Shown here one piece after another: positions 8,705 through 54,700 of a DNA stretch of 64,000 nt (position 1 is the first letter of the stretch; each line of letters starts with the position of its first letter). The notes beneath the pieces were generated by a model, which ran no database searches, was not told the DNA's origin, and saw only the letters and a program-made list of their open reading frames with translations. Made by a program: the position numbers and the translations under genes. Source of the stretch: Gemmatimonadota bacterium (GTDB taxonomy: Bacteria; Gemmatimonadota; Gemmatimonadetes; Longimicrobiales; Gaopeijiaceae); NCBI GenBank assembly GCA_007125845.1, contig SLCK01000014.1, positions 16,546-80,545 on the forward strand, in the 5' to 3' direction.

Positions 8705-9196
8705 GTGGTGAGGCGCCCCTCGGCGGAGGAGCTGATCGAGCGCTTCGGTCTCCGTCCGCACATCGAAGGAGGCCACTATCGGCGGATCTTCCGGTCCGAG
8801 CGCACCGTCCTTCGGGCAGGGGAATCGCGTGCGGCGCTCACCTGCATCCACTTCCTCCTCCGACAAGGCGAGCACAGCTCCTGGCATGAAGTGGCCAGCG
8901 ACGAAGCGTGGCACTTCCTCGCCGGCGACCCCCTCGAGCTCCTCGTCTTCGACCCCAACGGATCCGGGCAGGTCGAATCCATCCTCCTGGGGTCCGTGGA
9001 GCTGTCCGGAACGGTGCCTTCCCATGTGGTGCCCGCAAGAACCTGGCAGGCGGCGCGTCCCACGGGGGAGTTCAGCTTCGCCGGGTGCACCGTGGGTCCG
9101 GGCTTCGAATTCTCCGACTTTCGATTCGTACGGGAGATCCCGGGGCACGAGGGGCGCTTTCCCGATCTGCCTCCGAGCTACCGCAACCTGCTCTAG
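8705..9196 (+). CDS. cupin-fold protein (DUF985 family)
   Basis: Track ORF starts at 8624 and overlaps the carH end. Preferred GTG at 8705 follows AGGGGGA. Motif AEELIERFGLRPHIEGGHYRRIFRS is typical of DUF985 cupins. Start uncertain. Confidence 0.7.
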   Translation: MVRRPSAEELIERFGLRPHIEGGHYRRIFRSERTVLRAGESRAALTCIHFLLRQGEHSSWHEVASDEAWHFLAGDPLELLVFDPNGSGQVESILLGSVELSGTVPSHVVPARTWQAARPTGEFSFAGCTVGPGFEFSDFRFVREIPGHEGRFPDLPPSYRNLL

Positions 9197-12297: not shown

Positions 12298-12311
12298 GGA
12301 AGCCTTTCCGA

Positions 12312-13502: not shown

Positions 13503-16500
13503 TCACCCTTCCGCCGGAATGAGCTCGACGGGCCGGCCCCGGTGGTCTCGCGTTCCGTCGCCGAGTTGCCCTTCCAGGTTGTTGCCCCAGCAATAGACCG
13601 CGCCTCCCTCGGTCCGGCCGCACGTGTGGGAGCCCGTGGACGAAAGCTCGGCGAATCGCAATGTGGCGTCCACACGCACCGGAGCCGACGAGTCTGCGGA
13701 CGACCCGTCGCCGAGCTGCCCAAAGGTGTTCTGCCCCCAGCAGTGCGCCTCTCTGCGATCATTCAATGCGCAGGTGTGGTTCGCACCAACTGTGATCGAC
13801 ACAAAGCGCTCCTCGATGTCGACGACCGCGGGATCGGACGGGGCGCGACCACCGCCCTCCACCCCGAGTTGTCCGAATCGATTCTCACCCCAGCAGAGGA
13901 CCTGTCCCTCACGCGTCAACCCGCACACGTGCGAGGCGCCAGCGCTCACGGCCATGAAGGCTCGACCGCCCCCCACCTGGGTGGGCTGCGAGCTCGCGTC
14001 CGGGACGCCCTGACCCCAGCACCAGATCTCACCGACGCCGGTGAGCGAGCAGGTGCGATCCCATCCGGCGGAGACCACGACCGCACGTGGTCCCATCGAG
14101 ACCCGGACCGGCTCGGCCCGGTCCTGAGTGGTGCCGTCGCCAAGTTGCCCGTCCGTGTTCTCCCCCCAACAATAGACCTCCCCTCCGTCGGTGCGGCCGC
14201 AGGTGTGGCTGAGCCCGGCCGAGAGCTCCACGAAGTAATGGTCCCCGGCAACGGGAACCGGCGCCGCCCGGTCTTCCCGGGTCCCGTCTCCAAGCTGACC
14301 CCGATCGTTGTCTCCCCAGCAGTAGGCACGGCCCCGGGTCGAGGCGGCGCACGTATGCGAGATCCCGGTCGCCACGATGGCGAAGGTCTCCGGAAGCGCC
14401 GGCGCGACCGGAGCGGCGCTCCGCATTGCACTCCCGTCGCCGAGCTGGCCGTTTCCGTTCCCCCCCCAACAGGCAAGACCGCCCTGGGCCGTGAGGCGAC
14501 AGGTGTGCATGCCTCCGGCGGAAATCATCGCCCTCGGAGCGAGTGCGGGGGGATCGGGGGAGCTGCCGACGGACTCGGCGATTCCCGGGAGGGCCTCGGG
14601 CTCGAACTCGGCAGGAGACTCAACGGGGGGGGACGGAACCTCCGGACCCTCCTCCTGTGGAGCCTCCGCGACCGCGTCGGGGGATGCCGTCGCGATCCAC
14701 TCCACTTCGGTGTCGCTGGCAAGGACCGAAGCCACCAGTCTCTGTGTCCCCGTTTCCGGACCCAGAGTCCAACGTGTCGCCGCAAGACCGTCCCGGTCCG
14801 TCAGGACGACCGCCTCACTCACGCTCCCCTCCCCCTCCGCGGCCACGAACTCCACCAGCACTCCGGAAAGCGGATTGCCGAACTCGTCCTCGACCCGCGC
14901 CATTACGGGCTCCGCGAGCGTGGCTCCTGGGGGCGCGAACCGGTCCGTGGATCCCATCGCGAGGAGAGCCGCAGCCTCGGAGGGGACGCCGATCGCCCGC
15001 GCCGAAGTCGCCGCGTCCCCACTGGGGAGGACAGCAGCGACGAGGTTCTCTCCGGGAGCCGCCCCGAGCGTCCACTCCGCCGACAGGACGCCGGAGTCGT
15101 CGGTGACACCGGCCTCCGGAACGATCGATCCCCCACCGGATTCGATCCGAAGCTCCACCGGGACACCCGAGAGCGGGCGGCCTGCGTCGTCCTCCACACG
15201 CACCAGAACCGGGGTCTCGAGTGGGGTGCCGACTCGCCCGACCTGGGCGCCACCTTCGACTATCTGGACTCGCGCGGGCATCCCGCCGGCATCTGCCGAA
15301 GCCGGACCGGATGGATCCTCCGCCGGCCCGAAGGGAGAGGCGTCGAGGATCCATGCGAATCCGTCGAGCCCTTCAGCGCTTTCCTGGACCGCAAGCCATC
15401 CCAACCCCCCGGCAATCAGCAAGGCGACCACGAACACGGCCGTGCGGGCCAGGGTTCGGCGCGCGGGAGCGGGTGGGGAGGAGCGGCTCGGCCCATCCTT
15501 GCTCCGACGGACTCCGGCCGCTCGCTCGGGAGCAACCCATCCGGCAAAGGACTCTCTACCGGGCTGATCGGATGCTACGGGCTCCGCGGGAATCCGCACC
15601 GTGGGTGCATGCTCGTGCCAGTCGATCGACTCCCCGTCCTCGAGGGGTGTGCGGTTGACCCACTCCCGCAGCGCCTCCGCCTCCCTGTGGATGTCCGGAA
15701 GTCCCAGCCTGCGCACCACGGACTCCGCGCTCGACCAGCGGTCCTCGGGAGCTTTCTCGAGGAGACCCTCGATGACCACCCGCAAGTCCGGCCTCAGGTC
15801 AGGCCTGAGCTCGGTCAACGGCGGCAAGGACTCGTGCTTCTGCTTGTAGACGATCGCGTAGAGGTTATGGCCCTCCCACGGGGGGCGACCCGTGAGCATC
15901 TGGTAGCTGACCATCCCGAGGCTGTAGAGGTCGCTGCGGCCGTCGAGCTCGCGGCCGTCCACCTGCTCCGGAGACATGTAGGCCGGCGTACCGACCGTGG
16001 CCCCAGCGAGAGTGATGTCATTGCTCTCACCGGAAGCTCGAGCGATCCCGAAGTCCGAGAGGAGGGCAGCGGCCTTGTCGACATCGAGATAGATGTTCTG
16101 CGGCTTCAGGTCGCGGTGGATGATCCCATGCTCTTCGTGCGCATAGGCGAGAGCGGACCCGACGTCTCGCAGCACGCTCCGCACCACTGTCAAAGGAGCC
16201 GCTCCGCTCCGTTGAATCGCCTCCTTGAGAGTGATCCCAGGGACGTACTGCATGATGAGGGCGAGGCTGCCGTCCCGAAGGTGTCGGGTCGCGAGCAGCG
16301 AGACGATGTTGGGGTGCCGAAGCTTGGCGACGAGCGTGGCCTCCCGGGCCAGCCTCGCCACTGCTTCAGAGTCACTCGAGAACCCGGGTCGGATCAGCTT
16401 GACGGCGACTTCGCCCCCGCTCCCGAGCTCACGCGCGAGATACACGATGGCCGTACCGCCTCGCCCCAGCTCGCGAATCAGCTCGTACTGGCCCTCCAAC

Positions 16501-16565
16501 TCCGGCACTCGAGGGATCCCTCGAGCCTCACCGGACGAGTCCTTAGGTCTGCTCGATTTCTCCAT
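13503..16565 (-). CDS. Hanks-type Ser/Thr protein kinase with TM helix, two Big_1-like Ig domains and a C-terminal RCC1-repeat propeller
   Basis: 1020 aa. Kinase motifs GRGGTAIVY, VAVK, HRDLKPQNI, DFGIA, GTPAYMSPE. TM helix TAVFVVALLIAGGLGWLAV. Two Ig-like modules (VLVRVEDDAGRPLSGVPVEL; VMARVEDEFGNPLSGVLVEF). About 7 RCC1 repeats (HTC...CWGxNxxGQLGDG). Confidence 0.9.
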   Translation of the reverse strand: MEKSSRPKDSSGEARGIPRVPELEGQYELIRELGRGGTAIVYLARELGSGGEVAVKLIRPGFSSDSEAVARLAREATLVAKLRHPNIVSLLATRHLRDGSLALIMQYVPGITLKEAIQRSGAAPLTVVRSVLRDVGSALAYAHEEHGIIHRDLKPQNIYLDVDKAAALLSDFGIARASGESNDITLAGATVGTPAYMSPEQVDGRELDGRSDLYSLGMVSYQMLTGRPPWEGHNLYAIVYKQKHESLPPLTELRPDLRPDLRVVIEGLLEKAPEDRWSSAESVVRRLGLPDIHREAEALREWVNRTPLEDGESIDWHEHAPTVRIPAEPVASDQPGRESFAGWVAPERAAGVRRSKDGPSRSSPPAPARRTLARTAVFVVALLIAGGLGWLAVQESAEGLDGFAWILDASPFGPAEDPSGPASADAGGMPARVQIVEGGAQVGRVGTPLETPVLVRVEDDAGRPLSGVPVELRIESGGGSIVPEAGVTDDSGVLSAEWTLGAAPGENLVAAVLPSGDAATSARAIGVPSEAAALLAMGSTDRFAPPGATLAEPVMARVEDEFGNPLSGVLVEFVAAEGEGSVSEAVVLTDRDGLAATRWTLGPETGTQRLVASVLASDTEVEWIATASPDAVAEAPQEEGPEVPSPPVESPAEFEPEALPGIAESVGSSPDPPALAPRAMISAGGMHTCRLTAQGGLACWGGNGNGQLGDGSAMRSAAPVAPALPETFAIVATGISHTCAASTRGRAYCWGDNDRGQLGDGTREDRAAPVPVAGDHYFVELSAGLSHTCGRTDGGEVYCWGENTDGQLGDGTTQDRAEPVRVSMGPRAVVVSAGWDRTCSLTGVGEIWCWGQGVPDASSQPTQVGGGRAFMAVSAGASHVCGLTREGQVLCWGENRFGQLGVEGGGRAPSDPAVVDIEERFVSITVGANHTCALNDRREAHCWGQNTFGQLGDGSSADSSAPVRVDATLRFAELSSTGSHTCGRTEGGAVYCWGNNLEGQLGDGTRDHRGRPVELIPAEG

Positions 16566-16577
16566 AGACCGACCCTA

Positions 16578-17561
16578 TCAGAGAAACCAGAGGAGTAGCC
16601 CGGAGACGACCATGAAGATCGCTACCGCGAGCGCCGTATCGTACTGCCTGAGCCAGCTCCGCAGCCGGCTTCGCCGGCCGCGTCTTCTCGACCTCGCCGA
16701 GTCGTCGAAACCGAGGAGGGGTGCAGCCACGGTCTCCGCGGACGCCGGAGTCGTCACAGCCGCACGAGGTGTCTCGGAGTTCCGAGCACGCGGGCCCGAG
16801 TCCGTCGAGCCTTCGACCCGCGACGAAACAGGGACACCCGCCGGATCGAACGCACCCAACACCACGCTGATGTTGTCCGTGCTCCCGTTTTCGAAGGCCC
16901 GCTCGACGAGCCCACGAGCCGACGCGTCCAGGTCGGCGGCGGAAGTCTCCAGGTCCTCCGCCAGCGCCTCCTCGGAGACCACCTGGTACAGGCCGTCACT
17001 GCAGAGGAGAACGGTGTGCGCCTCCTCGACCGGGAAGGGCCCGAAGCGGTCCACCTCTACCTCCGGCTCGGTACCCACCGCCCTCGTGAGGGCGTGGCGC
17101 CAGCGTGTTCCTTCTACCTCACGAACGGCTTCAGGTCCGGTGCGACGGGCCTCCTCCAGGACGGAGTGATCCGCAGTGAGACGCGTCACAGTTCGCTTCA
17201 CGACGTGATAGGCCCGGCTGTCACCCACATTTGCGATCTGATAGCCTCCGTCCTCTACTAGCAGGCCGATCAACGTCGTTCCCATTCCCTCCCATTCTGG
17301 ATTCTCCTGGGCCGCGTCGTACACGGCCCGGTTCGCCGCGCGGAACGCATCTTCCAACGAGGCGCCCGCCCGAAGCTCCTCGACCAGTTTCGCGAGAGCG
17401 CACGCGCTCGCCTGCTCGCCTGCTCGGTGTCCCCCCATTCCGTCCGCGAGGGCCAGGAGAACCCGGCCGTCCGGAAAGGACTCGACCGTCACCGCATCCT
17501 GGTTGCTAGGCCGTCGCCCCGCCTCGGTGTGGGCTCCGTGTCGCAGGAGAGGTCGCGCCAT
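16578..17561 (-). CDS. PP2C-family Ser/Thr protein phosphatase, C-terminal TM anchor
   Basis: 327 aa. Motifs NQDA, ALADGMGGHRAGEQAS, SDGLY, GSTDNISVV. C-terminal hydrophobic helix LAVAIFMVVSGLLLWFL. Confidence 0.9.
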   Translation of the reverse strand: MARPLLRHGAHTEAGRRPSNQDAVTVESFPDGRVLLALADGMGGHRAGEQASACALAKLVEELRAGASLEDAFRAANRAVYDAAQENPEWEGMGTTLIGLLVEDGGYQIANVGDSRAYHVVKRTVTRLTADHSVLEEARRTGPEAVREVEGTRWRHALTRAVGTEPEVEVDRFGPFPVEEAHTVLLCSDGLYQVVSEEALAEDLETSAADLDASARGLVERAFENGSTDNISVVLGAFDPAGVPVSSRVEGSTDSGPRARNSETPRAAVTTPASAETVAAPLLGFDDSARSRRRGRRSRLRSWLRQYDTALAVAIFMVVSGLLLWFL

Positions 17562-17564
17562 CGG

Positions 17565-18401
17565 TTACCGCTCCCGAAAGATGAACACGACCTCTCCCAT
17601 CTCGATCCGCGACCCGTCGCTGAGGCCCCGGCTCTCCTCGTCGCCCTCCAATAGCTCACCGTCCACGACGAGACCGTTTGTCGAGGAAAGATTCCCGACC
17701 CGCCACTCGCCGCCGACGTATTCCATGTACGCATGCATTCGGCTCACCGTGGGAGCGAGAATCCTGATGTGCTCATGCTCCGGACCCCGGCTCCGCCCGA
17801 AGGTGAATCGTGCCCTCCCAGGGCCCCGAACGAAGCGCACTTCCCGATCCGGATACCCGGAGACCGCTTCCAGGCGACCCGGGAGGAGGTGGAGGGTCCG
17901 GTCATCGTCGGTCGCATCGTCCGGTGACGCATCCGGTGTCGCGGCCGGCGGCGCCGTACGCACCGCCGGGGGATCGTCCCGGAGCATGCGGCCCCGTTCG
18001 TCGTCCCCACGTCCCCGCGTCCCCGAGGACGCGAACGCCTCCTCCCTAGAATGCGGATCCTCGAGCGTAACAGCCCCTTCCGACACCTCTGAACCGCCTG
18101 CATGATCCGGGCCAGCCGTGAAGCCCGGTCCGGAGGAAGGCACTCGCGGCCCATCTGCGTCGTTGAAGAGAAACCTGGGCCTCTGCTCCTCATCATGCCG
18201 ACGCCGAAGGGCCCTGACTCCGAACCAGAGACCGAGCCCGAGCACCCCGACCACAACGAGCGCCCCCACCCCTACCGCAACAGGGGCCTCCCGCACCATG
18301 TCCAGAGAGAGCCACCCCCCGCCCCCCTCGGCCGGGGCGTCCTGCACCCGGAGCAGCCCGAGCACCACCGCACAGAGCGTCCACATGTCGGAAGCCAACA
18401 C
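17565..18401 (-). CDS. FHA-domain protein with N-terminal TM segments
   Basis: 278 aa, GTG start directly after TTGGAGGAAG. C-terminal FHA block FTFGRS...VSRMHAYMEYVGGEWRVGNLSSTNGLVVDGE. N-terminal hydrophobic helices. Confidence 0.85.
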   Translation of the reverse strand: MLASDMWTLCAVVLGLLRVQDAPAEGGGGWLSLDMVREAPVAVGVGALVVVGVLGLGLWFGVRALRRRHDEEQRPRFLFNDADGPRVPSSGPGFTAGPDHAGGSEVSEGAVTLEDPHSREEAFASSGTRGRGDDERGRMLRDDPPAVRTAPPAATPDASPDDATDDDRTLHLLPGRLEAVSGYPDREVRFVRGPGRARFTFGRSRGPEHEHIRILAPTVSRMHAYMEYVGGEWRVGNLSSTNGLVVDGELLEGDEESRGLSDGSRIEMGEVVFIFRER

Positions 18402-21144: not shown

Positions 21145-23580
21145 TCATCGCCCAGTGTCTCCTCCGCCCCTTTCGTCGTCGGCTCGGATCCTCGCCACAC
21201 GAAGAAAGAGATACCGGGACACCATCCATCCGACGGCAGCGACGGCCGAAGCGGCAAATGAGAGCAGGAGGGGCAGGGCGGCCACCAGCCAGAGCACATT
21301 CCACTTCGAGCTTCGCAGGAATTCGGCGACCCGACGACGTCTCCGAAGCCCCTTCACCTTCGTCACATCGGGCGCGCTCTCGCGCAGCGGCGAACGCGAT
21401 GCCGACCACAACACCGCACCCACTGCGGCGACGAGCACCCCCGCGAGGAAGGGAGCGCTCTGCGGAATTTCGGGAAGGACGTCCCGTCCGAAGGTGCGCA
21501 CCAGCCCCTCCATTGGTTCGGGGAGCGGCACGAGGAGGATCTCCATCCACCATCCCACAGCGGCCGCTATGGCCGCGCCCACGTCGGCAAGGGTGAGTCC
21601 CGAGCCGAGAATCAGGATCGGGGGAAAGAGGAGGGCCGCCGCCGCCAGAAGCAGGGAAACGGGCTCGCGAAGCCTCAAGGTGCGAAAGAAGCGGGCTCGC
21701 CCTGCCAGGAGAATCTCATCCACGCGGTCACCGCCCACGGGAGTTGCCGGCGGGGATGGCGGCACACGCGCGGCCTCGGGGGGCAGCATCGCACTCAAGT
21801 GTTCCCGTACGTACCTGTCCGCGGTGGCGTACCCGTGGTTCACGAGCGCACGAACCTCGATCTCCCCGAAACCGTCGAGGTCGGTGCGCAGAGAGGCGAC
21901 GTCCCGAGGACGCGTCGGGAGCTCGATTGGATCCGGCCCGGAGCGAACCGCGATCGGAGGCGACTGGATATGAAAATACGCCAGCCCGTCCAACCGACGG
22001 ACTTCACAGAAGTCGGCGAGCCGTCCGTCGGGCTGGGATCGCTCGACCGCCTGCGAGAGACGCCGGCGTTCCCGGACATACAGTCGCTGGAGCCCCGCGA
22101 GCGCGCCCCTCAGAATCTCGGGCACCCGCAGGACCAGACTCACGTGATCGGCGGGAGCGGCCTGCTCCTCGCGGAAGAGCCCTCCCGTGTCGCTCGCGAT
22201 GATCTGCGTGCACCCCTCATCGAGCAGCGCCGTGATTCCCATGTTGTCGAAGACGCCTCCGTCGGTCAGGGACAGGCGCGACACGAAGGCGTCTTCGTAG
22301 AGACCGTGAATGACCATCGGAGGAAATACCGGCGGAAAGCACGCGGAGGCGCCGACCGCCTCCGCGACCGTGAGCCGCCCCCAGTCCTTCTCGAGGTCGG
22401 GCGATGCCCGCTCTCCCGTTCTCAGCCAGTAGAGCTCGAGGATGAACTCCACGAGAAGGAGCTCCAGCTCCGGCGATGCCTCCGTCGCCGCTCTCAGGGA
22501 ACGGACCAGGTCTCGGTCAAGGTCGGCCAGAAGCTGGTGGAAGCGTGCCCGGTGAATTGCGACGTCCTCGTCCCGGATGACTCGGTCCGAGCCCGAGAGC
22601 TCCCGAATACACCATGCCTCCACCTTCACCGGACGGAGAGCGCCGAGCTCAACCGAGGGCAGCCTGCCCGGGAACCCCTGGACCTCGAAGAGCGCCTCCC
22701 AACCGGCCGGGAGCTCCTCAACGTCGCTTCCCCCGCGGCGCCACCACAGCGCGAGAGACGCGGTGCGATGATCGTCGTCCGATCCGGGAATGTCTCCCTC
22801 TTCGGTATCCCCCCCCAGGGCGAGCTCTTCGACATCCTCCTCGGCCAGATCGTGCAGGAGCCGCTTTCTAGCCAGGATTCTCGAGATCTCGTCGGCCCGG
22901 AAGGCCCCGAGCTGCCAGTCGCCCACCTCTCCGGCCGAGAACCAGAAGCGGGTGCCCGAGTTCAGAGAAGTGGCATTCAGCACGAGCGCCGTGAGCACCG
23001 ACCCCCCCGAATCCAACTGGTCCCGGTTGTAGGCTGAGAACTCCCTATCCGGAAGACGTCCTCCCGGTCGGATCCGCAGGTCCGTGAGGGCGATCCGCCC
23101 CGGCCGAAGCCACCGCTCGAGGAGCGGGCGCTCCCGGTACCCCTCGAGGTCCTGGGCCACAGCCTCGAAGAGATGGCGCTCATAGAGACGCGACATCCGG
23201 CGCGCAAGGGAATCTCCCGTAAGGAGCACCCTGAGGGTGCCGAGCGGGTTGACCAGGAGGAGCGTGCGCAGGTTGCGCCTCACACCGCGCACCAGCACCT
23301 GCTCGAGCTCACGAACGATCTCGACATACTCCTCCCGGGTCAGGCGACCATCGGGAGAACGCTCGAGCTCCCGCTTCAGGAGGAGAACGTACAGCGCCCC
23401 GACGATGGACCCTCCGGATACCGTGCTCAGGTGCTCGATCCGCCGCAGGAGGTCCAGCTCGGCCAGGCGCCGGAGCACGCCGAGGTGAAAGAGCGAGGCC
23501 CGGAATCCGCCACCTGCCAGCGCAAGGCCCAACTTGGACCGGGTCGAGGCCAGCGACCCTTCCGAATGCGCGTCCGTCAT
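21145..23580 (-). CDS. patatin-like phospholipase with large insert and C-terminal multi-TM domain
   Basis: 811 aa. Oxyanion GLALAGGGFRASLFHLGVL, nucleophile elbow STVSGGS, catalytic DGGVFDNMG about 380 aa downstream, and about 4 TM helices in the last 200 aa. Confidence 0.85.
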   Translation of the reverse strand: MTDAHSEGSLASTRSKLGLALAGGGFRASLFHLGVLRRLAELDLLRRIEHLSTVSGGSIVGALYVLLLKRELERSPDGRLTREEYVEIVRELEQVLVRGVRRNLRTLLLVNPLGTLRVLLTGDSLARRMSRLYERHLFEAVAQDLEGYRERPLLERWLRPGRIALTDLRIRPGGRLPDREFSAYNRDQLDSGGSVLTALVLNATSLNSGTRFWFSAGEVGDWQLGAFRADEISRILARKRLLHDLAEEDVEELALGGDTEEGDIPGSDDDHRTASLALWWRRGGSDVEELPAGWEALFEVQGFPGRLPSVELGALRPVKVEAWCIRELSGSDRVIRDEDVAIHRARFHQLLADLDRDLVRSLRAATEASPELELLLVEFILELYWLRTGERASPDLEKDWGRLTVAEAVGASACFPPVFPPMVIHGLYEDAFVSRLSLTDGGVFDNMGITALLDEGCTQIIASDTGGLFREEQAAPADHVSLVLRVPEILRGALAGLQRLYVRERRRLSQAVERSQPDGRLADFCEVRRLDGLAYFHIQSPPIAVRSGPDPIELPTRPRDVASLRTDLDGFGEIEVRALVNHGYATADRYVREHLSAMLPPEAARVPPSPPATPVGGDRVDEILLAGRARFFRTLRLREPVSLLLAAAALLFPPILILGSGLTLADVGAAIAAAVGWWMEILLVPLPEPMEGLVRTFGRDVLPEIPQSAPFLAGVLVAAVGAVLWSASRSPLRESAPDVTKVKGLRRRRRVAEFLRSSKWNVLWLVAALPLLLSFAASAVAAVGWMVSRYLFLRVARIRADDERGGGDTGR

Positions 23581-24080
23581 GGTTCAGAGTGGGAGTTGTA
23601 CTTCAGTCCGGTCATCCTGGCGAGCTCCTCGTCGACTCGACCGACAACGCAAAATGGTGTGCGCGCCCCGTGATCGATCTCAGGCTACGGGTCCACAACG
23701 CTCACGTCATAGGTCACGGCCCCGGAAACGGCAAGGGTGCCGAGCCCTGGTCCGCACCGCCTCCCAACCCCGCAACTGGCGTCCCCGGAGCCCATCTCCT
23801 ATTTTTCGACGGAATCCGTTCGGGCTCGCGCCCGGGGTGGTTCCCAGCGAAGACACATCCCCAGACTCGAGCCCGCATGCGCCCCACGGGCGATCCCCAG
23901 AGTATCGAGATTGCGGAGTTTCGCAACCGCGCTCAAGGACGGTCGAGATGAGCACAGATCGGTCGGGAGGATAATTCATTGCCCCCATTCCGTGGGAGTG
24001 ACCCACCTGACCAACCGGATCGGGGGTCGCTCCATGACACGCTTTGCCGTGCTGGCGCCGCAGCCGGCATCGAAGAGGCC

Positions 24081-26114
24081 ATGGAGCTGGGTCCCGTATT
24101 CGTCGAGGCCCTCTTCGAGGCGGCTCCCGATGCGATCTGCTTGCTCGCACACGGGGGGCGGATCCTCAAAGTGAACCGGGAGTTCGAGAGACTGTTCGGC
24201 TATTCCTTGGCCGACTGCCAGGACCGCAACATCGACGACTTGCTCGCTCCTTCGGAGCACAAGAAGGTGGCCAAGGATCTCACGAGACGGCTCGATGAGA
24301 GCAATCACGAGCGCGTGCGGCAGGACGTGATCCGCCAGGACGCTAGCGGAAATCTCATCCACGTCTCCATCCTCGCCCAACCCATCTTCCTGGACGACTT
24401 TCGGATCGGGACGTACGCGAGCTACCGGGACATCTCCGCTCGCAAGGCGCGGGAGCTGGACCTGCAGGAGGCCAAGCGGATGGCCGAGTCCGCCAACGTT
24501 GCCAAGACTCAGTTTCTGGCCAACACCAGTCACGAGATCCGCACACCCATGAACGCGATCATGGGAATGGCGAACCTCCTGGCCGAGACCGATCTCACCG
24601 AAGAGCAGAGGCGCTACGTTGAGATCTTCCGCTCCGCCGGTGAGAATCTTCTCGAGCTGATCAACGACATCCTCGACCTCTCGAGGGTGGAATCTGGCAG
24701 TCTGGAGTTGGAGGACGAGCCGCTGCACCTGGACGACCTCCTGAACAGTGTCGCCGAAGTCCTGGCGGTTCAGGCCCACAAGAAGGGGCTTGAGCTGATC
24801 GTGCGAGTTCCGCCGGAGCTGCCGACGGCCGTGCGGGGAGACGAGAATCGACTCCGGCAGGTGCTGACCAACCTGGTCGGGAACGCGGTGAAGTTCACCG
24901 ACAGTGGTGAGGTATCTCTGGAGCTGAGCGCGGCGAACCGGAGCAGGGCCACGCCGGAGGGAATCGTGCATCTGCTCGAGTTTGTGGTCTCCGACACGGG
25001 CGGCGGCATTCCTGAAGACCAACAGGCCGAGGTCTTCCTTCCGTTCACCCAGGCAGACGGCTCGACGACGAGGGAGCACGGGGGGTCGGGACTCGGTCTC
25101 ACCATCGCCTCACGCTTGGTGAAGCTGATGGGCGGCGAGCTCCAGCTCGAGAGCATTGTCGGCCAGGGGAGCTCCTTCCGCTTCGTCCTCGCGATGCCTG
25201 CCCATGATGAGGCTCGCAGAAAGGTCGAGGAGGTCGAGTCGGTCAATCTCAAGGGCAGCCTCTGCCTGGTGGTGGACGACCACGCGGTGAACCGGTTGAT
25301 CCTGAGCGAGATCCTCATGGGATGGGGCAGCGAAGTCGTGGAAGCGGGAGGCGGAATCGAGGCTCTCGCGCTCCTTCGCCGGGCAAAGAGGGAGGGGAAA
25401 ACTTTCGACTTCGTCCTCCTCGACGGGCAGATGCCGGGGATGGACGGATTCGAGGTAGCGGAGGTCATCGACCGGGAGCATCGCGGCACAGGCGTCACGG
25501 TGCTCATGCTGACGTCTCTCGACCGACGGGGAGACATCGCTCGGGCCAAGGAGCTCAACATCCACAGGTACATGGTCAAGCCGGTCCAGCGAAAAGCCCT
25601 CGCCCGGGCACTGTCGCGAGCACAAAGCGGCGCCGAGAGCAACGCCGCACAGGAGGCTGCGCCACGAACGGAGCCGACGACTCGACCCGAGCCGGCATCA
25701 GGCGCCTCGACTCCCATGCGCGTCTTGCTGGCAGAGGACGTGGATGACAATCGACTCCTGATCGAGCTGTTCCTGAAGGATGCGAACGTGGAGCTGGTCA
25801 TGGTCGAGAACGGGAAGGAGGCCGTGGAGGCAGTCCGAAGCGGCCGCACGTTCGACCTGATTCTCATGGACATCCAGATGCCAGTGCTGGACGGCTATCG
25901 GGCCACCCGAGAGATCCGCAGCCTGGAGAAGGCCAATGACCGGGGGCGCGTGCCGATACTGGCTCTCACGGCCCACGCTCTGGAGGAGGAGCGCCGATTG
26001 ACACGGGAGGCCGGCTGCGACGATCACCTGACCAAGCCGATCCGGAAGGACGAGCTGATCTCGATCGTCGAGCGATATCGGGCAAACCCGAAGCCGGGGC
26101 AGGCAGACGCATGA
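24081..26114 (+). CDS. hybrid sensor histidine kinase: PAS - HisKA - HATPase - REC - REC
   Basis: Track ORF starts at 23979. Preferred ATG is 24081 (MELGPVFVEALFEAAPDAI), after GAAGAGG. H-box FLANTSHEIRTPMNAI. HATPase blocks DTGGGI and GGSGLGL. Two receivers (VLLDGQMPGMDG; LILMDIQMPVLDG). Confidence 0.85.
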   Translation: MELGPVFVEALFEAAPDAICLLAHGGRILKVNREFERLFGYSLADCQDRNIDDLLAPSEHKKVAKDLTRRLDESNHERVRQDVIRQDASGNLIHVSILAQPIFLDDFRIGTYASYRDISARKARELDLQEAKRMAESANVAKTQFLANTSHEIRTPMNAIMGMANLLAETDLTEEQRRYVEIFRSAGENLLELINDILDLSRVESGSLELEDEPLHLDDLLNSVAEVLAVQAHKKGLELIVRVPPELPTAVRGDENRLRQVLTNLVGNAVKFTDSGEVSLELSAANRSRATPEGIVHLLEFVVSDTGGGIPEDQQAEVFLPFTQADGSTTREHGGSGLGLTIASRLVKLMGGELQLESIVGQGSSFRFVLAMPAHDEARRKVEEVESVNLKGSLCLVVDDHAVNRLILSEILMGWGSEVVEAGGGIEALALLRRAKREGKTFDFVLLDGQMPGMDGFEVAEVIDREHRGTGVTVLMLTSLDRRGDIARAKELNIHRYMVKPVQRKALARALSRAQSGAESNAAQEAAPRTEPTTRPEPASGASTPMRVLLAEDVDDNRLLIELFLKDANVELVMVENGKEAVEAVRSGRTFDLILMDIQMPVLDGYRATREIRSLEKANDRGRVPILALTAHALEEERRLTREAGCDDHLTKPIRKDELISIVERYRANPKPGQADA

Positions 26115-28270
26115 GCCGAACTCCTGTCCGACGCGAGAGCTGGCTCCTTCCGGAGACGTTCAGCGCCTTCAAGCGTGATCTCGTCGAGCGTCGCTCTCCC
26201 GACCCCGACGTGATCGGAGAAGCCCAGACCGTGGGGCCCACGCAGCTCTACGAGCTCGGTCGTATCCTGCACCTTCCCGACGACCAGATCTGCCGATACC
26301 TCGCTCGATTTCTGGAGCTCCCTTACCTCGAGCGGCTCCATGCCGAGGAGCTTCTTGGAAGTGCGCTCTCGCGCGAGTTCTGCGAGGCGAACCTCGTAGC
26401 TCCCCTCACTGATGGCCGGGTCGTCCTCTCCAACCCCTTCGACTGGGCACTCATCGACACGCTCGAAAGGACGCTGTGGAGGGGTGCGGCGCCGGACGTC
26501 GCCCTGGCCGAGCCGGAGACCATTCTCACGGCTACTCGCCGGGGGGATGACGAAATCCTCCAACACGACCTTACGAAATCGGAAGTCCTCTCCCTTGAGT
26601 CGGCCGAGTCGACCGCCAGCGAACACGAGGGGCAGTCAGAAAGGGCGTCCGCCGCCGCGATCGGGAACGAGATCATGCGGGGAGCCGTGCGGGAGAAGGC
26701 CAGCGACGTCCACTTCGAGCCAAAAGAACGCGGAACGCTGGTCCGGTACCGGATCGACGGGGAGATGCACGACATCCGCATGATCGACCGGGAAACGGGC
26801 ACAAGGGTCATTTCGCGACTCAAGGTCTCTGCGGGCATGAACATCGCGGAGCGACGCAAGCCGCAGGACGGCTCTGTGGAAGCAAGCTTTGACGGTCGTC
26901 GGTTCAAGCTGCGCTTGGCCACCAGCGCGACCACCGACGGAGAGACGCTCGTCGTCAGAATCCTCGAACCCCACGTCGAACCGATCCCCCTGGAAGATCT
27001 CGGTTTCACGGAGGATCAAGCGGCCGACCTGCGCGAGATGGCGGGGCAGCGACAGGGAACGATCCTCGTCGTGGGACCGACCGGCTCGGGCAAGTCCACG
27101 ACCATCTTCACCCTCCTCAGCACGGTCGACGGGGAAAGTCGCAGCATCATGTCGGTCGAGGACCCGGTCGAGTATCGGATTCCTCACGCCAACCAGCAGC
27201 AGGTCCAGGAGCGGGCGGGAATCACCTTCGAGTCGCTGCTGCGCTCGGCGATGAGGCAGGACCCCGATATCCTGTTCCTGGGTGAAGTGCGCGATCGCTT
27301 CTCGGCTCTGGCCTTGCTTGATTTCTCGAGCTCGGGCCACCTGACGATCTCGAGCCTCCATTCATCGAATGCGACCACCGCCATCTTTCGACTGGAGCGG
27401 CTGGGCGTCGATCGCAGTGCCATGTCGGAGGCCATTTCGGGAATCGTCGCCCAGAAGCTTTTGAGATCCCTGTGCACATCGTGCCGAGAGATTGGGGAGA
27501 TCACCGCAGAAGAGCGACGCCTCCTCGAAGCTTTCACGGACGATGTTCCGCAGGTGGTGGCTCGGGCCGTTGGCTGTCCGGCGTGCCGGGAAACCGGCTA
27601 TTCGGGCCGGCAGGCCGTATGCGAAGTCATTCGAGTCGACCAGACGATCGCGCAAATGATTCAGAAGGGGGAGCCGGTTGCGAAGATCCGCACCCACCTT
27701 GCCCGGTCCGGCCGCTACCTCATCGGCCACCACGTCCTCGACCGGATCCGCTCGCAATCCATCCCGGTCCGGGAGGCGTACGAGCAGATCCTGATCGAGG
27801 AGCTGCACCTGAAAGACCTGCCTGCGGAGCCCCCCGCGTCGTCCGAATCGGCGTCGCCCGAGGAGGAGGTCGCGCCGATGATCCTTCTGGTGGACGATGA
27901 CCCCGACTTCCATGCGCTGGTCGAGGTCTTTCTCACCGGGGCGGGCTACCGGATGGTCTCGGCGTACGACGGCCTGGAGGGGATGATGGAGCTCGCCCGA
28001 ACACCGATCGACCTGATCCTCTCCGACATCCGAATGCCGAACCTCGACGGTGTGAAGCTCATGGAGATGATCACGAACAAGGGTGTCGACGTGCCGGCCA
28101 TCTTTCTGACCGGCGCCACCGACGACGGGCTCGAAGCCAAAGTGCTCTCGCTGGGCGCCGCGGACTTCATGCGAAAACCCATCTCCCGGGACGTGCTCCT
28201 CCTGCGGGTCAAGAAAGTCCTGGCGACCAAGGGCATTCAGCCGCCCTCCCCGAGCGAGAGCCTCCCATGA
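26111..28270 (+). CDS. GspE/PilB-family type II/IV secretion/pilus assembly ATPase with C-terminal response-regulator receiver domain
   Basis: 719 aa. ATGA overlap with the HK stop. T2SSE_N-like N-terminus, Walker A VGPTGSGKST, tetracysteine CTSC...CPAC. C-terminal REC is ILLVDDDPDF...DLILSDIRMPNLDG...FLTGATDD...FMRKP (acceptor Asp codon 28025-28027). Confidence 0.9.
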   Translation: MSRTPVRRESWLLPETFSAFKRDLVERRSPDPDVIGEAQTVGPTQLYELGRILHLPDDQICRYLARFLELPYLERLHAEELLGSALSREFCEANLVAPLTDGRVVLSNPFDWALIDTLERTLWRGAAPDVALAEPETILTATRRGDDEILQHDLTKSEVLSLESAESTASEHEGQSERASAAAIGNEIMRGAVREKASDVHFEPKERGTLVRYRIDGEMHDIRMIDRETGTRVISRLKVSAGMNIAERRKPQDGSVEASFDGRRFKLRLATSATTDGETLVVRILEPHVEPIPLEDLGFTEDQAADLREMAGQRQGTILVVGPTGSGKSTTIFTLLSTVDGESRSIMSVEDPVEYRIPHANQQQVQERAGITFESLLRSAMRQDPDILFLGEVRDRFSALALLDFSSSGHLTISSLHSSNATTAIFRLERLGVDRSAMSEAISGIVAQKLLRSLCTSCREIGEITAEERRLLEAFTDDVPQVVARAVGCPACRETGYSGRQAVCEVIRVDQTIAQMIQKGEPVAKIRTHLARSGRYLIGHHVLDRIRSQSIPVREAYEQILIEELHLKDLPAEPPASSESASPEEEVAPMILLVDDDPDFHALVEVFLTGAGYRMVSAYDGLEGMMELARTPIDLILSDIRMPNLDGVKLMEMITNKGVDVPAIFLTGATDDGLEAKVLSLGAADFMRKPISRDVLLLRVKKVLATKGIQPPSPSESLP

Positions 28271-28602
28271 CCGGGGAACACGCCTCCGGCCTCGGCCCGG
28301 GCACGCCCACCCGGGCCGAGGTGCCATCAGAGCTCGCCCCCCTGATTCCGCGTTACCTGGAGAACCGGCGAGCCGACGTCATCCGCCTTCGGGAGGCGCT
28401 CGAGCGGGGCGACCTGGACACCGTGGGCTCGGTGGGTCACTCGATGAAGGGGACCGGTGGCGGATACGGCTTTCAGGAGCTCACCGAGATCGGCGGCCGG
28501 ATCGAGGCGTGTGCCCGAGCGAAGGACAGCTCGTCGCTCCGGGAACTCCTGGAGGAGCTCGAGGCGTACCTGGAGGAAGTGGACGTCGTGTACGTCGAGT
28601 GA
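28267..28602 (+). CDS. histidine phosphotransfer (Hpt) domain protein
   Basis: 111 aa. ATGA overlap with the ATPase stop. HSMKGTGGGYGF motif (His codon 28438-28440). Confidence 0.85.
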   Translation: MTGEHASGLGPGTPTRAEVPSELAPLIPRYLENRRADVIRLREALERGDLDTVGSVGHSMKGTGGGYGFQELTEIGGRIEACARAKDSSSLRELLEELEAYLEEVDVVYVE

Positions 28603-28645
28603 TCTCCGCAGTGAATAGGTCTTGCGGGCCTTGGTCCACGGCCTT

Positions 28646-30208
28646 CTACAGGACCTCTCGCCAACGAGTCACTCGAGCGCTTCCTCCCTCCGTGACCACC
28701 CCGGTTCGCCCTTCGCCCAGCGCTTCGTCGTAGTGGATTCCGCCCGCTCCGGTCACGTCGACGGAGCTACCTCGAACCGCGCCGTACAATCCCCCCGAAC
28801 CGATCACGGAAACGTCCGTGCGGGGCGCGTACACGGACGCGTAGATCTGGGTACTTCCACCGATCCGGACACCGTCGTGCCCGGCGAAGGAGGAGAATAT
28901 CGAGAAGGTCGGAATGACCACGGGTGAACCCCCTTCCACAATCGTCATGGTCGGAGCGGCGTTTTGGTTCACGAGGCCTCCTCCCAGGTTGACGCGCCCG
29001 GTCACGTACACCTCGAGTGCGGCGCCCGGCTCGATGATCAGCTGCGAACCGCCCCCAAGCGTCATGTCGCCGTCCACGAACAGTCGCACCGGAACGCCCT
29101 CTCCGGGAGTGGAGGGCGCCTGTATTCTCACGATCGAGCTACCGCCCATCGAGAAGTTGCCGTTCACGAAGACCTCTCCGACTCCGTCCGACGCGAAGTT
29201 GATTTGATTCGTCGCGCCGGATGAGAAGGAAGGGCTGAAGGCGACATCTTCCTCGAAGTTGACGGGGGAGGGTCGCCAACCCGAGTAGTTGCCGTTCTCG
29301 AAGTCCCCCGGCCCCCCGGGCCGAGCTCCTTCTAGCGTGCCATCCACGAAGTCGTTCACGTTCAAGGGATCACAGGTCCCGTGAGGAGCGGGCACGTCGG
29401 CCCCCGGCTCCAACTCGGCCCCGGGGCACCACCACGTACCGGGCGTCTGCACAGCTCCACCGGCCAACACCGGATTTGCTGGACACGTCGGATTCCCCGA
29501 AAAAGTGATGTCGCCGGTGGCCATCATGGATCCCTCCACGGTTGCGCTCCCGCTCATCGTCAGGTTCCCTCCGACGTGGAGGTCACCCTTCACGAGAGTG
29601 TTTCCGGGGAGGGAAACGTCACCCGACAACGTCGTGACCCTCGCATCCGAGCTGGCCTGCCCGGACAGATAGGGTCCATCCCGGGAATCGTAGGAATCGA
29701 TCCGTCCCGATCCCCTCAGCACGACGCCGTTGCACCCCACGACCGCCGACTGGAAGGGCGAGGCCGTGGATCGTCCGCCTCGGGAGAACTCCACCTCGAG
29801 TTCTCGGCGCACCCTCCCCGAGGCATCTTCGCCCACGATTCGGATCAACACGCCGTTTCCTTCGAAGTCGACAGCGTCGACCCACCAGCGAGCGTCTGCG
29901 TGGTTGAGATCGAGGCCCGGCCCGGATGGAAGCCCCTCTCCGACTTGCTCCAGCGCCGCCCCCGCATACTCTCCGTCTTCGACCCACGAGAGTTGATCGG
30001 ACAAGAACCCGTTGACGACGAACGCCGCCCCCGACTCCGCCGCCTGGATCGCTCGTACCGAGGAGTTGAGCCGACCCGCATAGTCCGCTTGCTGGACGGC
30101 CACTGCGGCCACGGAACCGCCCGCAATCGTGGCGACTACGAGAAGGATCAGCAAGAGCGGAAGGACGAATCCGCGCTCATTCTCGAAGGTGCGACGTGGA
30201 GCGGTCAT
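28646..30208 (-). CDS. PilX_N-like pilus assembly protein with large beta-helix-like C-terminal domain
   Basis: 520 aa. N-terminus ERGFVLPLLLILLVVATIAGG...AIQAAESGA resembles the PilX N-terminal domain. The central region has repetitive G/V/T/S strands (GDVSLPGNTLVKGDLHVGGNLTMSGSATVEGSMMATGDITFSGN). ATGA overlap with the upstream gene. Confidence 0.65.
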   Translation of the reverse strand: MTAPRRTFENERGFVLPLLLILLVVATIAGGSVAAVAVQQADYAGRLNSSVRAIQAAESGAAFVVNGFLSDQLSWVEDGEYAGAALEQVGEGLPSGPGLDLNHADARWWVDAVDFEGNGVLIRIVGEDASGRVRRELEVEFSRGGRSTASPFQSAVVGCNGVVLRGSGRIDSYDSRDGPYLSGQASSDARVTTLSGDVSLPGNTLVKGDLHVGGNLTMSGSATVEGSMMATGDITFSGNPTCPANPVLAGGAVQTPGTWWCPGAELEPGADVPAPHGTCDPLNVNDFVDGTLEGARPGGPGDFENGNYSGWRPSPVNFEEDVAFSPSFSSGATNQINFASDGVGEVFVNGNFSMGGSSIVRIQAPSTPGEGVPVRLFVDGDMTLGGGSQLIIEPGAALEVYVTGRVNLGGGLVNQNAAPTMTIVEGGSPVVIPTFSIFSSFAGHDGVRIGGSTQIYASVYAPRTDVSVIGSGGLYGAVRGSSVDVTGAGGIHYDEALGEGRTGVVTEGGSARVTRWREVL

Positions 30209-30801
30209 CCTTCCAACTCCAGACGATCGAACACCTTCTCCCGAATCACGGCGGTCACCTCCGTTTCGCCCAGGAAGCGTCCCCGTCCGGATCTCGCGTC
30301 GACGAAGAGGCGGAGGCGCACAGCCAGGACGTCCGGAGCGAGCTCGACGGGGGCTTCCGAAGAAAAGCTGTCGACAGTTCCGATCCCCAGGGTGTCCAGG
30401 CCGAAGGTCACCTCGAAACCCGTGACCGCCGGTGCGATCAGCCGCGTCTCTCCGCTTTCCCCATCAGGCGGCCGGGCAACGAGCCCCGGACCCGAAGCCT
30501 CCAACCAACAAGTCTCGCTGCCGCACAGCGGCTCGCTTCTCGGGCCGGACAGAGCGAGTCGTGATCCATTGCTCGAGTCGTGGACCTCCGCTGCGTTCCT
30601 GACGAGGTTCAACAAGAGTTCCACCGACCGATGCAGCTCCGTCTGTGCGTCCCGCACCGCCTCCTGCTCTTCGGCCACGCGTGCGAAGATCAGAAAAATC
30701 GATAACGCGCCGGTCATGAGAATGCCCGAGACCACGAGGACGACCATGAGCTCGATGAGGGTGGCTCCCCGGCGGCCGAGCGCCCAGCCAGGGTCCCTCA
30801 T
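30205..30801 (-). CDS. prepilin-type N-terminal cleavage/methylation domain protein (PilW-like minor pseudopilin)
   Basis: Start trimmed to ATG 30801 (ATGA overlap with the upstream stop): MRDPGWALGRRG/ATLIELMVVLVVSGILMTG, with Glu at +5. Confidence 0.7.
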   Translation of the reverse strand: MRDPGWALGRRGATLIELMVVLVVSGILMTGALSIFLIFARVAEEQEAVRDAQTELHRSVELLLNLVRNAAEVHDSSNGSRLALSGPRSEPLCGSETCWLEASGPGLVARPPDGESGETRLIAPAVTGFEVTFGLDTLGIGTVDSFSSEAPVELAPDVLAVRLRLFVDARSGRGRFLGETEVTAVIREKVFDRLELEG

Positions 30802-31193
30802 GGTTGGATCACGGGCAGGCGCACCCGATACTCGTACTCCATCGGGTCCTGCGCTCCGGCCTCTTCCCATCGGATTCGGATCCGCACGAGGCCGGGCTCT
30901 CCTGATTCGATGAACGCCGCCTCCCCCGACCATCCGGCTGCAGAGCCGGCGTGGGAATCTTGCCAGGCGTCCACCTGGCCGAGCGGGTCGTTGAGATCGA
31001 GCCACATCCGCTCGCCCATATCCAGCGCCTGCGTGTGCGCCATCGTGCGCATGAAGCTGTCACTACTCGTCCTGGAGGCGAACCAGAAGAGCTGACCGAG
31101 CGCGAGCATGCCCACGCTCAGGATGACCAGGCTGACCAGGACTTCGATGAGCGTGAATCCCCCGTTTCCTCGGGTTCCTGCACGAATCGGCAC
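30798..31193 (-). CDS. prepilin-type N-terminal cleavage/methylation domain protein (PilV-like minor pseudopilin)
   Basis: 131 aa. MPIRAGTRGNGG/FTLIEVLVSLVILSVGMLALG, a class III signal with Glu at +5. Confidence 0.75.
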   Translation of the reverse strand: MPIRAGTRGNGGFTLIEVLVSLVILSVGMLALGQLFWFASRTSSDSFMRTMAHTQALDMGERMWLDLNDPLGQVDAWQDSHAGSAAGWSGEAAFIESGEPGLVRIRIRWEEAGAQDPMEYEYRVRLPVIQP

Positions 31194-31256
31194 GGTGTCG
31201 CTCCAGGATGGAGAGCGAGCCGACCTCGGTTAGAGGCGACTTCAGGGCACCCCAAG

Positions 31257-31272
31257 TGCAACAGACATGCCA
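31257..31272 (-). promoter_or_regulatory. sigma54-type (-24/-12) promoter candidate for the pseudopilin operon
   Basis: Minus strand reads TGGCAT-GTCTG-TTGCA (GG-N10-GC spacing; consensus TGGCAC-N5-TTGC). Lies 64 nt upstream of the PilV-like ATG, in the correct orientation. Confidence 0.45.
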
Positions 31273-31396
31273 ATACGCCACCAATGGCCTATACCATTGC
31301 TTGACAACGACTTACGCAAGAAAGGAGGCGGGAATGTCCGCCTCGGCGCGAGGAAGAATGCGATGCCGTCTTGCGCTTCGCCCCAGACAAGGGTCG

Positions 31397-32377
31397 TCAG
31401 CCCTCCACCGCCTCCAGAAGCACGTCGCGATGGGCCTCGAGGAGCTCGGCCACGGTAATCGGATCGCGTCCGGTCAGCTCCCTGACCGCGTCGCTCATCA
31501 CCTCGTAGGAGTCGAAGCCGGCCATCACCCCGGCCGGCGCCTGCTCGTCCCCGCCCTCCCCCTCCACCACCTCTACCGAAGCGCCGGTCAGGTCGCTCGC
31601 GATCCGGGCAATATCCGAGCGGGTCACGAGCTCCGATCCCGTGATGTCGTACGCGCGATTCTCGTGCCCGCTTCCGATGAGAACGCTCGCCGCGGCCGCC
31701 GCACAGTCCTCACGAGCGACGTAGGCGGTGGGTACCTCGTCGGGTTGGACGACCACGCTCCCCTCCGACAACATGTTCGCCGCCTGGTTCACCAGGCCGT
31801 TGGCATAGAGATGGTTGCGAAGCATCGTCCAGGCGACCCCGCTCGCCCGGATGTACTCCTCGGTGCTGCGATGATCGAAGGCGGAAGTGGTACTGGGGTT
31901 GTCGACGTCGACCGAGGAGGTATAGACGATATGCTGCACACCGGCCTGGACCGCCGCATCAATTGCACTCTGGTGCCACTCGACCCGATCGGGCACAGGG
32001 CTGATCGAGATGAGGAGCATTCGGGTTCCCCCCTCGTAGGCGGCCGGGAGGGATTCGGGCTCGCTGAAATCTCCGTAGCGCGTGCTGGCGCCGGCCTGGG
32101 CGTACTCTTCGAGACCCTCGGGCGTCCGACTGACCAGGATGAGTTGGGAGGGCTCAACCCCGAGCGCGAGCAGCTCCTCCACGACCAGACCGCCCAACTG
32201 ACCTGAAGCGCCCGATACGATGATCCGCTCCTCCGACGTGTCCGGTGCTCCAGCTTCGTCGGGCGCCTCGCCGCCGCACGCGGCGAAGAGGAAGGCCGTC
32301 GCGAAGGCGATCGAGTGCCATCTTCGCGAACCCCGCCGCAGATTGCCGCCGACACCGTTGAACAACGTTCCGCACAT
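31397..32377 (-). CDS. NmrA-like / atypical SDR NAD(P)-binding protein with lipoprotein-type signal
   Basis: 326 aa. AGGAGG 6 nt upstream of the ATG. N-terminus HSIAFATAFLFAAC, then Rossmann motif IIVSGASGQLGG. Confidence 0.8.
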   Translation of the reverse strand: MCGTLFNGVGGNLRRGSRRWHSIAFATAFLFAACGGEAPDEAGAPDTSEERIIVSGASGQLGGLVVEELLALGVEPSQLILVSRTPEGLEEYAQAGASTRYGDFSEPESLPAAYEGGTRMLLISISPVPDRVEWHQSAIDAAVQAGVQHIVYTSSVDVDNPSTTSAFDHRSTEEYIRASGVAWTMLRNHLYANGLVNQAANMLSEGSVVVQPDEVPTAYVAREDCAAAAASVLIGSGHENRAYDITGSELVTRSDIARIASDLTGASVEVVEGEGGDEQAPAGVMAGFDSYEVMSDAVRELTGRDPITVAELLEAHRDVLLEAVEG

Positions 32378-54654: not shown

Positions 54655-54700
54655 CCATCGCGGTGGGCCGCGAGCGGATTCGCGTCCGGAGGGCTCGAGG

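Follow-up and report, generated by a model that had tools for sequence, protein, structure and literature searches.

This study concerns a 64,000-nucleotide stretch of contig SLCK01000014.1 (assembly GCA_007125845.1) from a Gemmatimonadota bacterium, referred to here as the window, and an operon of three forward-strand genes within it. These encode a hybrid histidine kinase, a GspE/PilB-type ATPase with a receiver (REC) domain fused to its C-terminus, and a stand-alone histidine phosphotransfer (Hpt) protein (Table 1). We consider it probable that the three proteins form a His-Asp-His-Asp phosphorelay, with the ATPase as terminal acceptor and sole output.

According to the initial annotation of this locus, ATGA overlaps couple three genes, the first for a two-receiver PAS hybrid kinase, the second for an ATPase of the GspE/PilB type whose C-terminal receiver carries the acceptor Asp, and the third for a stand-alone Hpt. 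Both start/stop overlaps were found where it had placed them, by direct reading of the letters. A Pfam scan, the hidden Markov model check that it had suggested, recovered the domain content of all three genes, and every motif that it quoted (GPTGSGKST, CxxC...CxxC, LILSDIRMP and HSMKG) was located in the predicted proteins. NCBI assembly GCA_007120315.1 contains the same stretch, and its gene calls include these three. One relative (L090) shows the 4-nt overlap at both junctions, as in the window, and another (L004) has an 11-nt overlap between the kinase and ATPase genes. Given that the Pfam scores of the trio lie far above the curated cut-offs and that the trio recurs in distant genomes, its arrangement cannot be attributed to chance. 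A promoter and terminator scan of positions 23400-31500 gave no signal exceeding the shuffled expectation.

With regard to the kinase, the databases differ on its start: NCBI places it at an ATG (24081; 677 aa) and ENA at a TTG (23979; 711 aa), the codon at which the open reading frame (ORF) opens. Its Pfam scores are 48.9 bits for PAS, 80.8 for HisKA, 96.0 for HATPase_c and 146.5 for Response_reg, the last over two stretches. The H-box histidine is present and both receivers exhibit the canonical residues. No Hpt domain was detected by Pfam within the kinase. Its nearest NCBIfam relatives, all under their cut-offs, are the Hpt-using hybrid kinases BarA, TorS, LuxQ and ArcB.

Table 1 Features of the three-gene operon and of the adjacent pilin-like genes (positions in the window)
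Feature	Position (nt)	Strand	Details	Basis
Soluble hybrid histidine kinase	24081-26114	+	PAS, HisKA, HATPase_c, two REC	Pfam
Kinase PAS	24102-24446	+		Pfam
Kinase HisKA	24501-24698	+	H151 at 24531-24533	Pfam, motif position
Kinase HATPase_c	24837-25196	+		Pfam
Kinase REC1	~25263-25616	+	D448 at 25422-25424	Pfam, motif position
Kinase REC2	25722-26069	+	D597 at 25869-25871	Pfam, motif position
ATGA overlap, kinase gene/ATPase gene	26111-26114	+		Direct reading
GspE/PilB-type ATPase with C-terminal receiver	26111-28270	+	719 aa	Pfam, alignment, AlphaFold2/Foldseek
ATPase helical region and N1 domain	26138-26539	+	Followed by a disordered linker	
ATPase N2 and C-terminal ATPase domain	26660-27811	+	Followed by a second linker	
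Walker A	27074-27100	+	GPTGSGKST, residues 322-330	
Asp box	27152-27175	+	SVEDPVEY, residues 348-355	
Walker B	27266-27295	+	DILFLGEVRD, residues 386-395	
His box	27335-27364	+	GHLTISSLHS, residues 409-418	
Tetracysteine motif	27473-27484 / 27575-27586	+	CTSC 455-458 / CPAC 489-492	
ATPase fused REC	27878-28228	+	Acceptor D639 at 28025-28027; LILSDIRMPN, residues 635-644	
ATGA overlap, ATPase gene/Hpt gene	28267-28270	+		Direct reading
Stand-alone Hpt	28267-28602	+	111 aa; HSMKG, residues 58-62; H58 at 28438-28440	Pfam Hpt, 40.1 bits
PilX-like protein	28646-30208	-	520 aa; hydrophobic N-terminus; adhesin-like beta-helix	DUF7305 62.4 bits, pAdhesive_15 33.2 bits
PilW/GspH-like prepilin	30205-30801	-	198 aa (NCBI call); ORF open to 31005	N_methyl 26.8 bits; weak PilW, weak GspH
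PilV-like prepilin	30798-31193	-	131 aa; GFTLIE motif; first gene of a three-gene minor-pilin operon	N_methyl 34.4 bits

Domains, residues and fold of the ATPase

The ATPase scored 337.6 bits against the Pfam T2SSE family, and its receiver scored 83.9 bits against Response_reg (cut-off 30.2). A weak match to MshEN (PF05157; 26.2 bits, cut-off 23.1) spans residues 78-144, the N1 part alone. Residues 181-547 align with Vibrio cholerae EpsE (1p9r; E 1.7e-75), and the alignment retains Walker A, the Asp box, Walker B including its Glu, the His box, the arginine region RRKPQDG and the two CxxC pairs. In an alignment of 20 family members drawn from several phyla, K328 of Walker A, E350 of the Asp box, E392 of Walker B and H410/H417 of the His box were found to be invariant, as were C455, C458, C489 and C492, which align to the EpsE cysteines. 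The codon-position GC content of the gene is gene-like.

The fused receiver residues D595/D596, D639, T667 and K689 align to D12/D13, D57, T87 and K109 of E. coli CheY. The acidic pocket, a defect in which the initial annotation had named as grounds for refuting its reading, is complete in this alignment. Across the 20 family members K689 is invariant, and D596, D597, D639 and T667 of the ATPase are kept in at least 90%.

An AlphaFold2 model of the ATPase (mean predicted local distance difference test score 76) comprises a helical region with N1, then N2, the C-terminal ATPase domain and the receiver, with two disordered linkers. The monomer has a predicted template modelling score of 0.48, at which the inter-domain geometry, including the placement of the receiver relative to the ATPase, is unreliable. 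Foldseek matched the model to GspE (4pht) over 484 columns including N1E (E 4e-35), to PilB (5tsh; template modelling (TM) score 0.84) and to PilF (5oiu), with TM scores of 0.83-0.84 for the core of these two, and ranked these structures well ahead of PilT-type retraction ATPases (E 1e-35 versus 1e-19). The identity of the ATPase core to the GspE, PilB and PilF structures is 28-34%. From its residues and fold, the protein is predicted to be a catalytically competent, extension-type GspE/PilB ATPase.

The REC-ATPase-REC family and its genomic neighbourhood

A protein search with the window ATPase returned 7812 matches, and domain content was examined for the best 120. All 120 combine T2SSE with Response_reg, and 117 carry receivers at both ends; the N-terminal one is missing only in the window protein and in two others (P0002 and P0013). 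The usual architecture of the family is REC-N1-N2-CTD-REC, where CTD denotes the C-terminal ATPase domain. The survey of GspE::REC architectures that the initial annotation had suggested revealed that the architecture is not rare but belongs to a large family visible in databases. In a search of one genome per Genome Taxonomy Database (GTDB) species, two family-specific peptide patterns matched 274 species genomes. The best 80 of these loci were fetched, and all align to the query through its receiver. They span more than ten phyla and come almost exclusively from metagenome-assembled genomes (MAGs). The closest are from Gemmatimonadota (72-43% identity to the window ATPase), in line with a Gemmatimonadota origin of the window, and the others include Thermodesulfobacteriota, Omnitrophota, Acidobacteriota, Elusimicrobiota, Nitrospirales, WOR-3, Aminicenantes, Chloroflexota and Clostridia. 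In databases, the members are named only as 'response regulator', 'ATPase, T2SS/T4P/T4SS family', 'PilB' or 'TadA'.

A simple neighbour-joining tree of the ATPase core, built without support values, places the family in one clade, separated by a long branch from the outgroups E. coli GspE and HofB. The window protein and that of L008, a contig of the same lineage, are sisters inside the Gemmatimonadota clade and are its only clear members without an N-terminal receiver, which argues that this receiver was lost recently. On the basis of these comparisons, the window ATPase is a derived member of the family that has lost its N-terminal receiver. The tree also shows an independent loss in a Syntrophales subclade. 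An N-terminal receiver was not detected in the Syntrophales/Deltaproteobacteria loci L013, L019, L023, L024, L028, L037, L051, L071 and L078, nor in L052, L058 and L082, which belong to Omnitrophota, Auribacterota and Aminicenantes. The tree suggests repeated loss; for some of these loci the missing receiver may instead be due to ORF-start or frameshift errors in the MAG contigs. Relocation of the N-terminal receiver onto the kinase was considered and rejected, since relatives that keep this receiver also have two-receiver kinases.

Gene context was counted in those related loci whose flanks both reach at least 3 kb (47 in number, hereafter the complete loci). All 47 have a C-terminal REC on the ATPase and an Hpt gene within 5 kb of it; in 41 the Hpt gene is a direct neighbour on the same strand. 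In 31, a gene for a kinase similar to the window kinase in its core also lies within 5 kb. The gene order is kinase-ATPase-Hpt in Gemmatimonadota, often with the same 4-nt overlaps, and usually kinase-(REC)-Hpt-ATPase elsewhere. The genes flanking the trio differ from locus to locus without relation. In the window, beyond a 500-bp intergenic region and divergent from the kinase gene, lies a gene (21145-23580, reverse strand) for a patatin-like phospholipase of 811 aa whose C-terminal part is long and hydrophobic; this adjacency is not kept in relatives.

On the other side of the trio, the minor-pilin operon (28646-31193, reverse strand) converges on it, with 43 bp between the stop codon of its PilX-like gene and that of the Hpt gene. 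The initial annotation mentioned neither these genes nor the N-terminal receiver of most homologues. The PilV-like protein scores 47.4 bits against TIGR02523 (PilV), below the cut-off of 52.2. The 520-aa PilX-like protein gave 32 bits for a choice-of-anchor A family of NCBIfam, and its PilX-like N-terminus was judged by eye. Codon-position GC gave no hint that the pilin genes were recently transferred. The closest relative, L008, with 72% identity, has no such genes downstream of the trio. It does carry a PilV homologue (8e-21) at the contig end, in divergent orientation and some 240 bp upstream of its kinase gene. As a PilV-like gene stands beside the trio in both the window and L008, on opposite sides, the association has survived rearrangement in two genomes. 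An earlier view of the window pilin genes as a lineage-specific insertion, based on L007, was withdrawn when the longer L008 contig of the same lineage was found to carry this homologue. The link between PilV/W/X-like genes and the trio comes from two genomes and is suggestive, not strong.

A further type of pilin link, a prepilin gene beside the ATPase gene and in the same direction, was found in 15-16 of the 47 complete loci, all of them outside Gemmatimonadota, Omnitrophota and the basal clades. In these loci the ATPase gene is followed, or occasionally preceded, on the same strand by genes for a Zn-ribbon membrane protein and a prepilin. The former has about 175 residues, an N-terminal CxxC...CxxC zinc ribbon and one transmembrane helix, and matches no Pfam or NCBIfam family. 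The latter has an N_methyl domain and a C-terminal part matching PF06439 (DUF1080), a lectin-like beta-sandwich. The pair was noted downstream of the ATPase in L093 (6984-13648), L013, L021, L041, L055, L076, L083 and L087. The WOR-3 operon L093 has the order H-NOX (HNOB), kinase, Hpt, REC::ATPase::REC, Zn-ribbon protein, prepilin. Genes for a platform, a secretin or a peptidase are absent beside the pair in these loci. Among the loci examined, the family is recurrently linked to prepilin-type substrates and never to a platform gene.

Proposed phosphorelay and possible role of the ATPase

In the proposed relay, the cytoplasmic PAS hybrid kinase would autophosphorylate at H151 and pass the phosphoryl group to one of its own receivers, at D448 or D597. 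The Hpt, through H58, would then carry it to D639 of the ATPase. We infer this direction, with the ATPase as output, because the kinase has no internal Hpt and its nearest named relatives are Hpt-dependent, and because Hpt linkage is universal among the complete loci and the module contains no other output domain. The phosphoreceiving His is also conserved in 79 of 81 family-linked Hpt genes. Phosphorylation would most likely switch ATPase activity or ring assembly; by analogy with MshE and NtrC-type proteins, candidate points of control are ring assembly, the N2-CTD clamp and docking via N1. The ATPase would probably drive prepilin-type proteins to assemble on a platform whose genes lie elsewhere in the genome, with the adjacent PilV/PilW/PilX-like set as likely substrates in the window lineage. 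We infer a filament-motor role from the extension-type fold, the strict conservation of catalytic residues and the pilin links.

Several observations weigh against this interpretation. Firstly, the two receivers on the kinase bring the number of Asp sites in the module to three, so the route is not unique. With two receivers on the kinase and two on most ATPases, some of them may serve as branches or sinks. The initial annotation had read the operon as a simple four-step chain; the logic of a relay is supported by the evidence above, and the simple chain is not. Secondly, the ATPase falls below the NCBIfam equivalog cut-offs for GspE (TIGR02533; 344.8 versus 630.25 bits) and PilB (TIGR02538; 317.4 versus 675.65 bits), as do the two-receiver homologues P0003 and P0113. 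Thirdly, phmmer queries with E. coli GspF, HofC, GspD, GspL, GspM and GspC gave no match within 10 kb in 84 loci; the prepilin peptidase query GspO gave one match, and a second T2SSE ATPase occurs in one locus. Pfam scans of the 64-kb window found no T2SSF, PilM/N/O, secretin, prepilin peptidase or PilT, and ten Pfam-annotated family contexts likewise have no machinery (platform, secretin) families. Finally, the pilin genes of the window are on the opposite strand and are therefore not co-transcribed with the trio, and the more distant Gemmatimonadota loci have no pilin gene near it. The case for a filament-motor role is weakened by the absence of any platform gene. The designation 'type IV filament motor' in the initial annotation accordingly goes further than the locus itself, given the missed cut-offs and the lack of platform, alignment, secretin or retraction genes in the window and near the 84 loci.

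A further reading, which we put forward tentatively, is that the family makes up a class of its own among type IV filament ATPases, gated by a phosphorelay, with an obligatory Hpt and without a dedicated PilC/GspF platform gene. In many phyla the ATPase is co-transcribed only with the Zn-ribbon protein and the lectin-domain prepilin, and an H-NOX gene heads one WOR-3 operon. These arrangements suggest a mini-machine, triggered by a signal, for displaying or extending an adhesive pilin, with the Zn-ribbon protein as membrane anchor or with a shared pilus platform. The window copy would be a stripped-down Gemmatimonadota version whose partners have been swapped for PilV/W/X-like pilins.

The same absence of machinery genes would also be expected if the ATPase were a signalling device rather than a motor, its nucleotide-dependent conformations being set by phosphorylation of the receiver and read by other proteins. 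That the only invariant partners are signalling proteins fits this explanation, as does the lack of a nearby pilin gene in about two thirds of the complete loci. There is a precedent in Myxococcus, where PilB is reported to signal to exopolysaccharide production (PMC5544727). A pure signalling role would not account for the strict conservation of every catalytic residue and of the Zn motif of extension ATPases, for the retention of N1, which in GspE is the part that docks onto GspL, or for the co-directional prepilin gene in one third of the loci. We regard this explanation as unlikely.

It is quite improbable that the protein is an ordinary genomic PilB or GspE encoded apart from its machinery, its receiver either modulating it in a minor way or serving the kinase as a sink for phosphate. 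A housekeeping motor would have no need of the Hpt tie seen in all complete loci. The separate clade on its long branch, the two missed equivalog cut-offs and the two receivers on most members also set the family apart, even though motor genes are sometimes scattered across genomes, the core has 28-34% identity to GspE, PilB and PilF structures, and PilV/W/X-like genes adjoin.

A fortuitous adjacency or a decaying gene is very improbable. Degeneration would be marked by the missing N-terminal receiver, which 117 of the best 120 matches retain and which two others besides the window protein have lost. Against this, the loss is clean and common to a 72%-identical orthologue with all motifs intact, codon-position GC is gene-like, the overlaps with both neighbouring genes are preserved and an independent receiver-less subclade exists in Syntrophales.

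The window holds further genes besides. A Ser/Thr signalling cluster (13503-18401, reverse strand) encodes a protein kinase of about 1000 aa with RCC1/WD40 repeats, a PP2C phosphatase and an FHA-domain protein. On the forward strand are a MerR-type regulator with B12-binding domains and a CarH/LitR-like, light-responsive architecture (7711-8670), a DNA photolyase (54620-56128), and consecutive genes for a MoxR-type AAA_3 ATPase, a DUF58 protein and two VWA/BatA-like proteins, the layout of a BatA-type 'aerotolerance' operon (56125-61277). The reverse strand carries ABC-2 transporter genes, including one for a 689-aa permease fused to a CAAX/Rce1-like intramembrane protease domain (45085-49264), and a gene for a 1126-aa likely surface protein with Big_2, TIG and quinohemoprotein amine dehydrogenase domain III repeats (9193-12573).

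Comparison with known systems

The inputs known to switch on the extension ATPases of type II secretion systems and type IV pili are c-di-GMP, adaptor proteins and, since recently, response regulators that stand free. Receiver and motor fused in nature are a 'Rosetta stone' that argues for widespread direct phospho-control of such ATPases, and here the fusion is kept, together with a kinase and an Hpt of its own, in more than ten phyla. The self-contained three-protein system would allow the effect of phosphorylation on a GspE/PilB-type ring to be measured in vitro. The lack of a linked platform gene, together with the recurrent Zn-ribbon and lectin-pilin partners, hints at an undescribed use for the motor.

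The best sequence and fold matches of the window ATPase are EpsE of V. cholerae and GspE of Vibrio vulnificus (1p9r, 4ksr and 4pht), with which it shares the Walker A, Asp box, Walker B, His box and tetracysteine motifs. Unlike them, it has no gspF, gspL or gspM partner nearby and carries a C-terminal receiver, to which most relatives add an N-terminal one. With the PilB and PilF proteins of Geobacter (5tsh) and Thermus (5oiu) it shares the core fold and is of the extension type, not the PilT type; it differs in its receiver fusion and in having no pilC, pilM-Q or pilT nearby.

The most plausible mechanistic analogy is provided by the NtrC/DctD-type REC-AAA+ regulators, in which a receiver is fused to a ring-forming ATPase and phosphorylation controls ring assembly. 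These differ in belonging to another ATPase superfamily, in their sigma-54 transcriptional output and in having the receiver at the N-terminus only.

The MshE-type ATPases, such as V. cholerae MshE and Pseudomonas aeruginosa PA14_29490, are gated by c-di-GMP (PMC5013675). They share with the present family the idea of a small-signal sensor on the N-terminus of a GspE-like ATPase, and the window protein retains the weak PF05157 match on N1. In the family, however, the input would be a phosphoryl group rather than a nucleotide, and in 117 of the 120 best matches a receiver precedes N1 where MshE has its c-di-GMP-binding subdomain. MshEN may co-occur with REC in some architectures, and its c-di-GMP motif is a tandem 24-residue RLGxx(L/V/I)(L/V/I)xxG(L/V/I)(L/V/I)xxxxLxxxLxxQ (PMC5013675). 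A regular expression for this motif, and a loose version of it, matched none of 82 family sequences.

With regard to phospho-control, the initial annotation held that such motors are known to be regulated only through c-di-GMP or transcription, a view that is now out of date. DrdR of Xanthomonas, a free-standing response regulator, is reported to bind PilB and PilT and to raise their ATPase activity (PMC13507683), and the PatA-type regulators of Synechocystis are free-standing response regulators that act on PilB (bioRxiv 10.1101/2021.06.11.447907). These proteins and P. aeruginosa PilG/PilH (PMC11656802) exemplify post-translational control over the motor of type IV pili by two-component receivers, as proposed here for the window ATPase. 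No published work on a receiver-fused GspE/PilB ATPase family was found under several names in the literature searched, in keeping with the initial annotation, and a 2024 review of PilB control does not use the words 'receiver' or 'fused' for PilB. The principle of response-regulator control of PilB is already known, whereas a cis fusion with a dedicated kinase-Hpt relay is undescribed in the literature searched. DrdR, the PatA-type regulators and PilG/PilH act in trans on canonical motors inside complete pilus systems; in the window the receiver is fused in cis, and a dedicated hybrid kinase and Hpt are encoded together with the ATPase.

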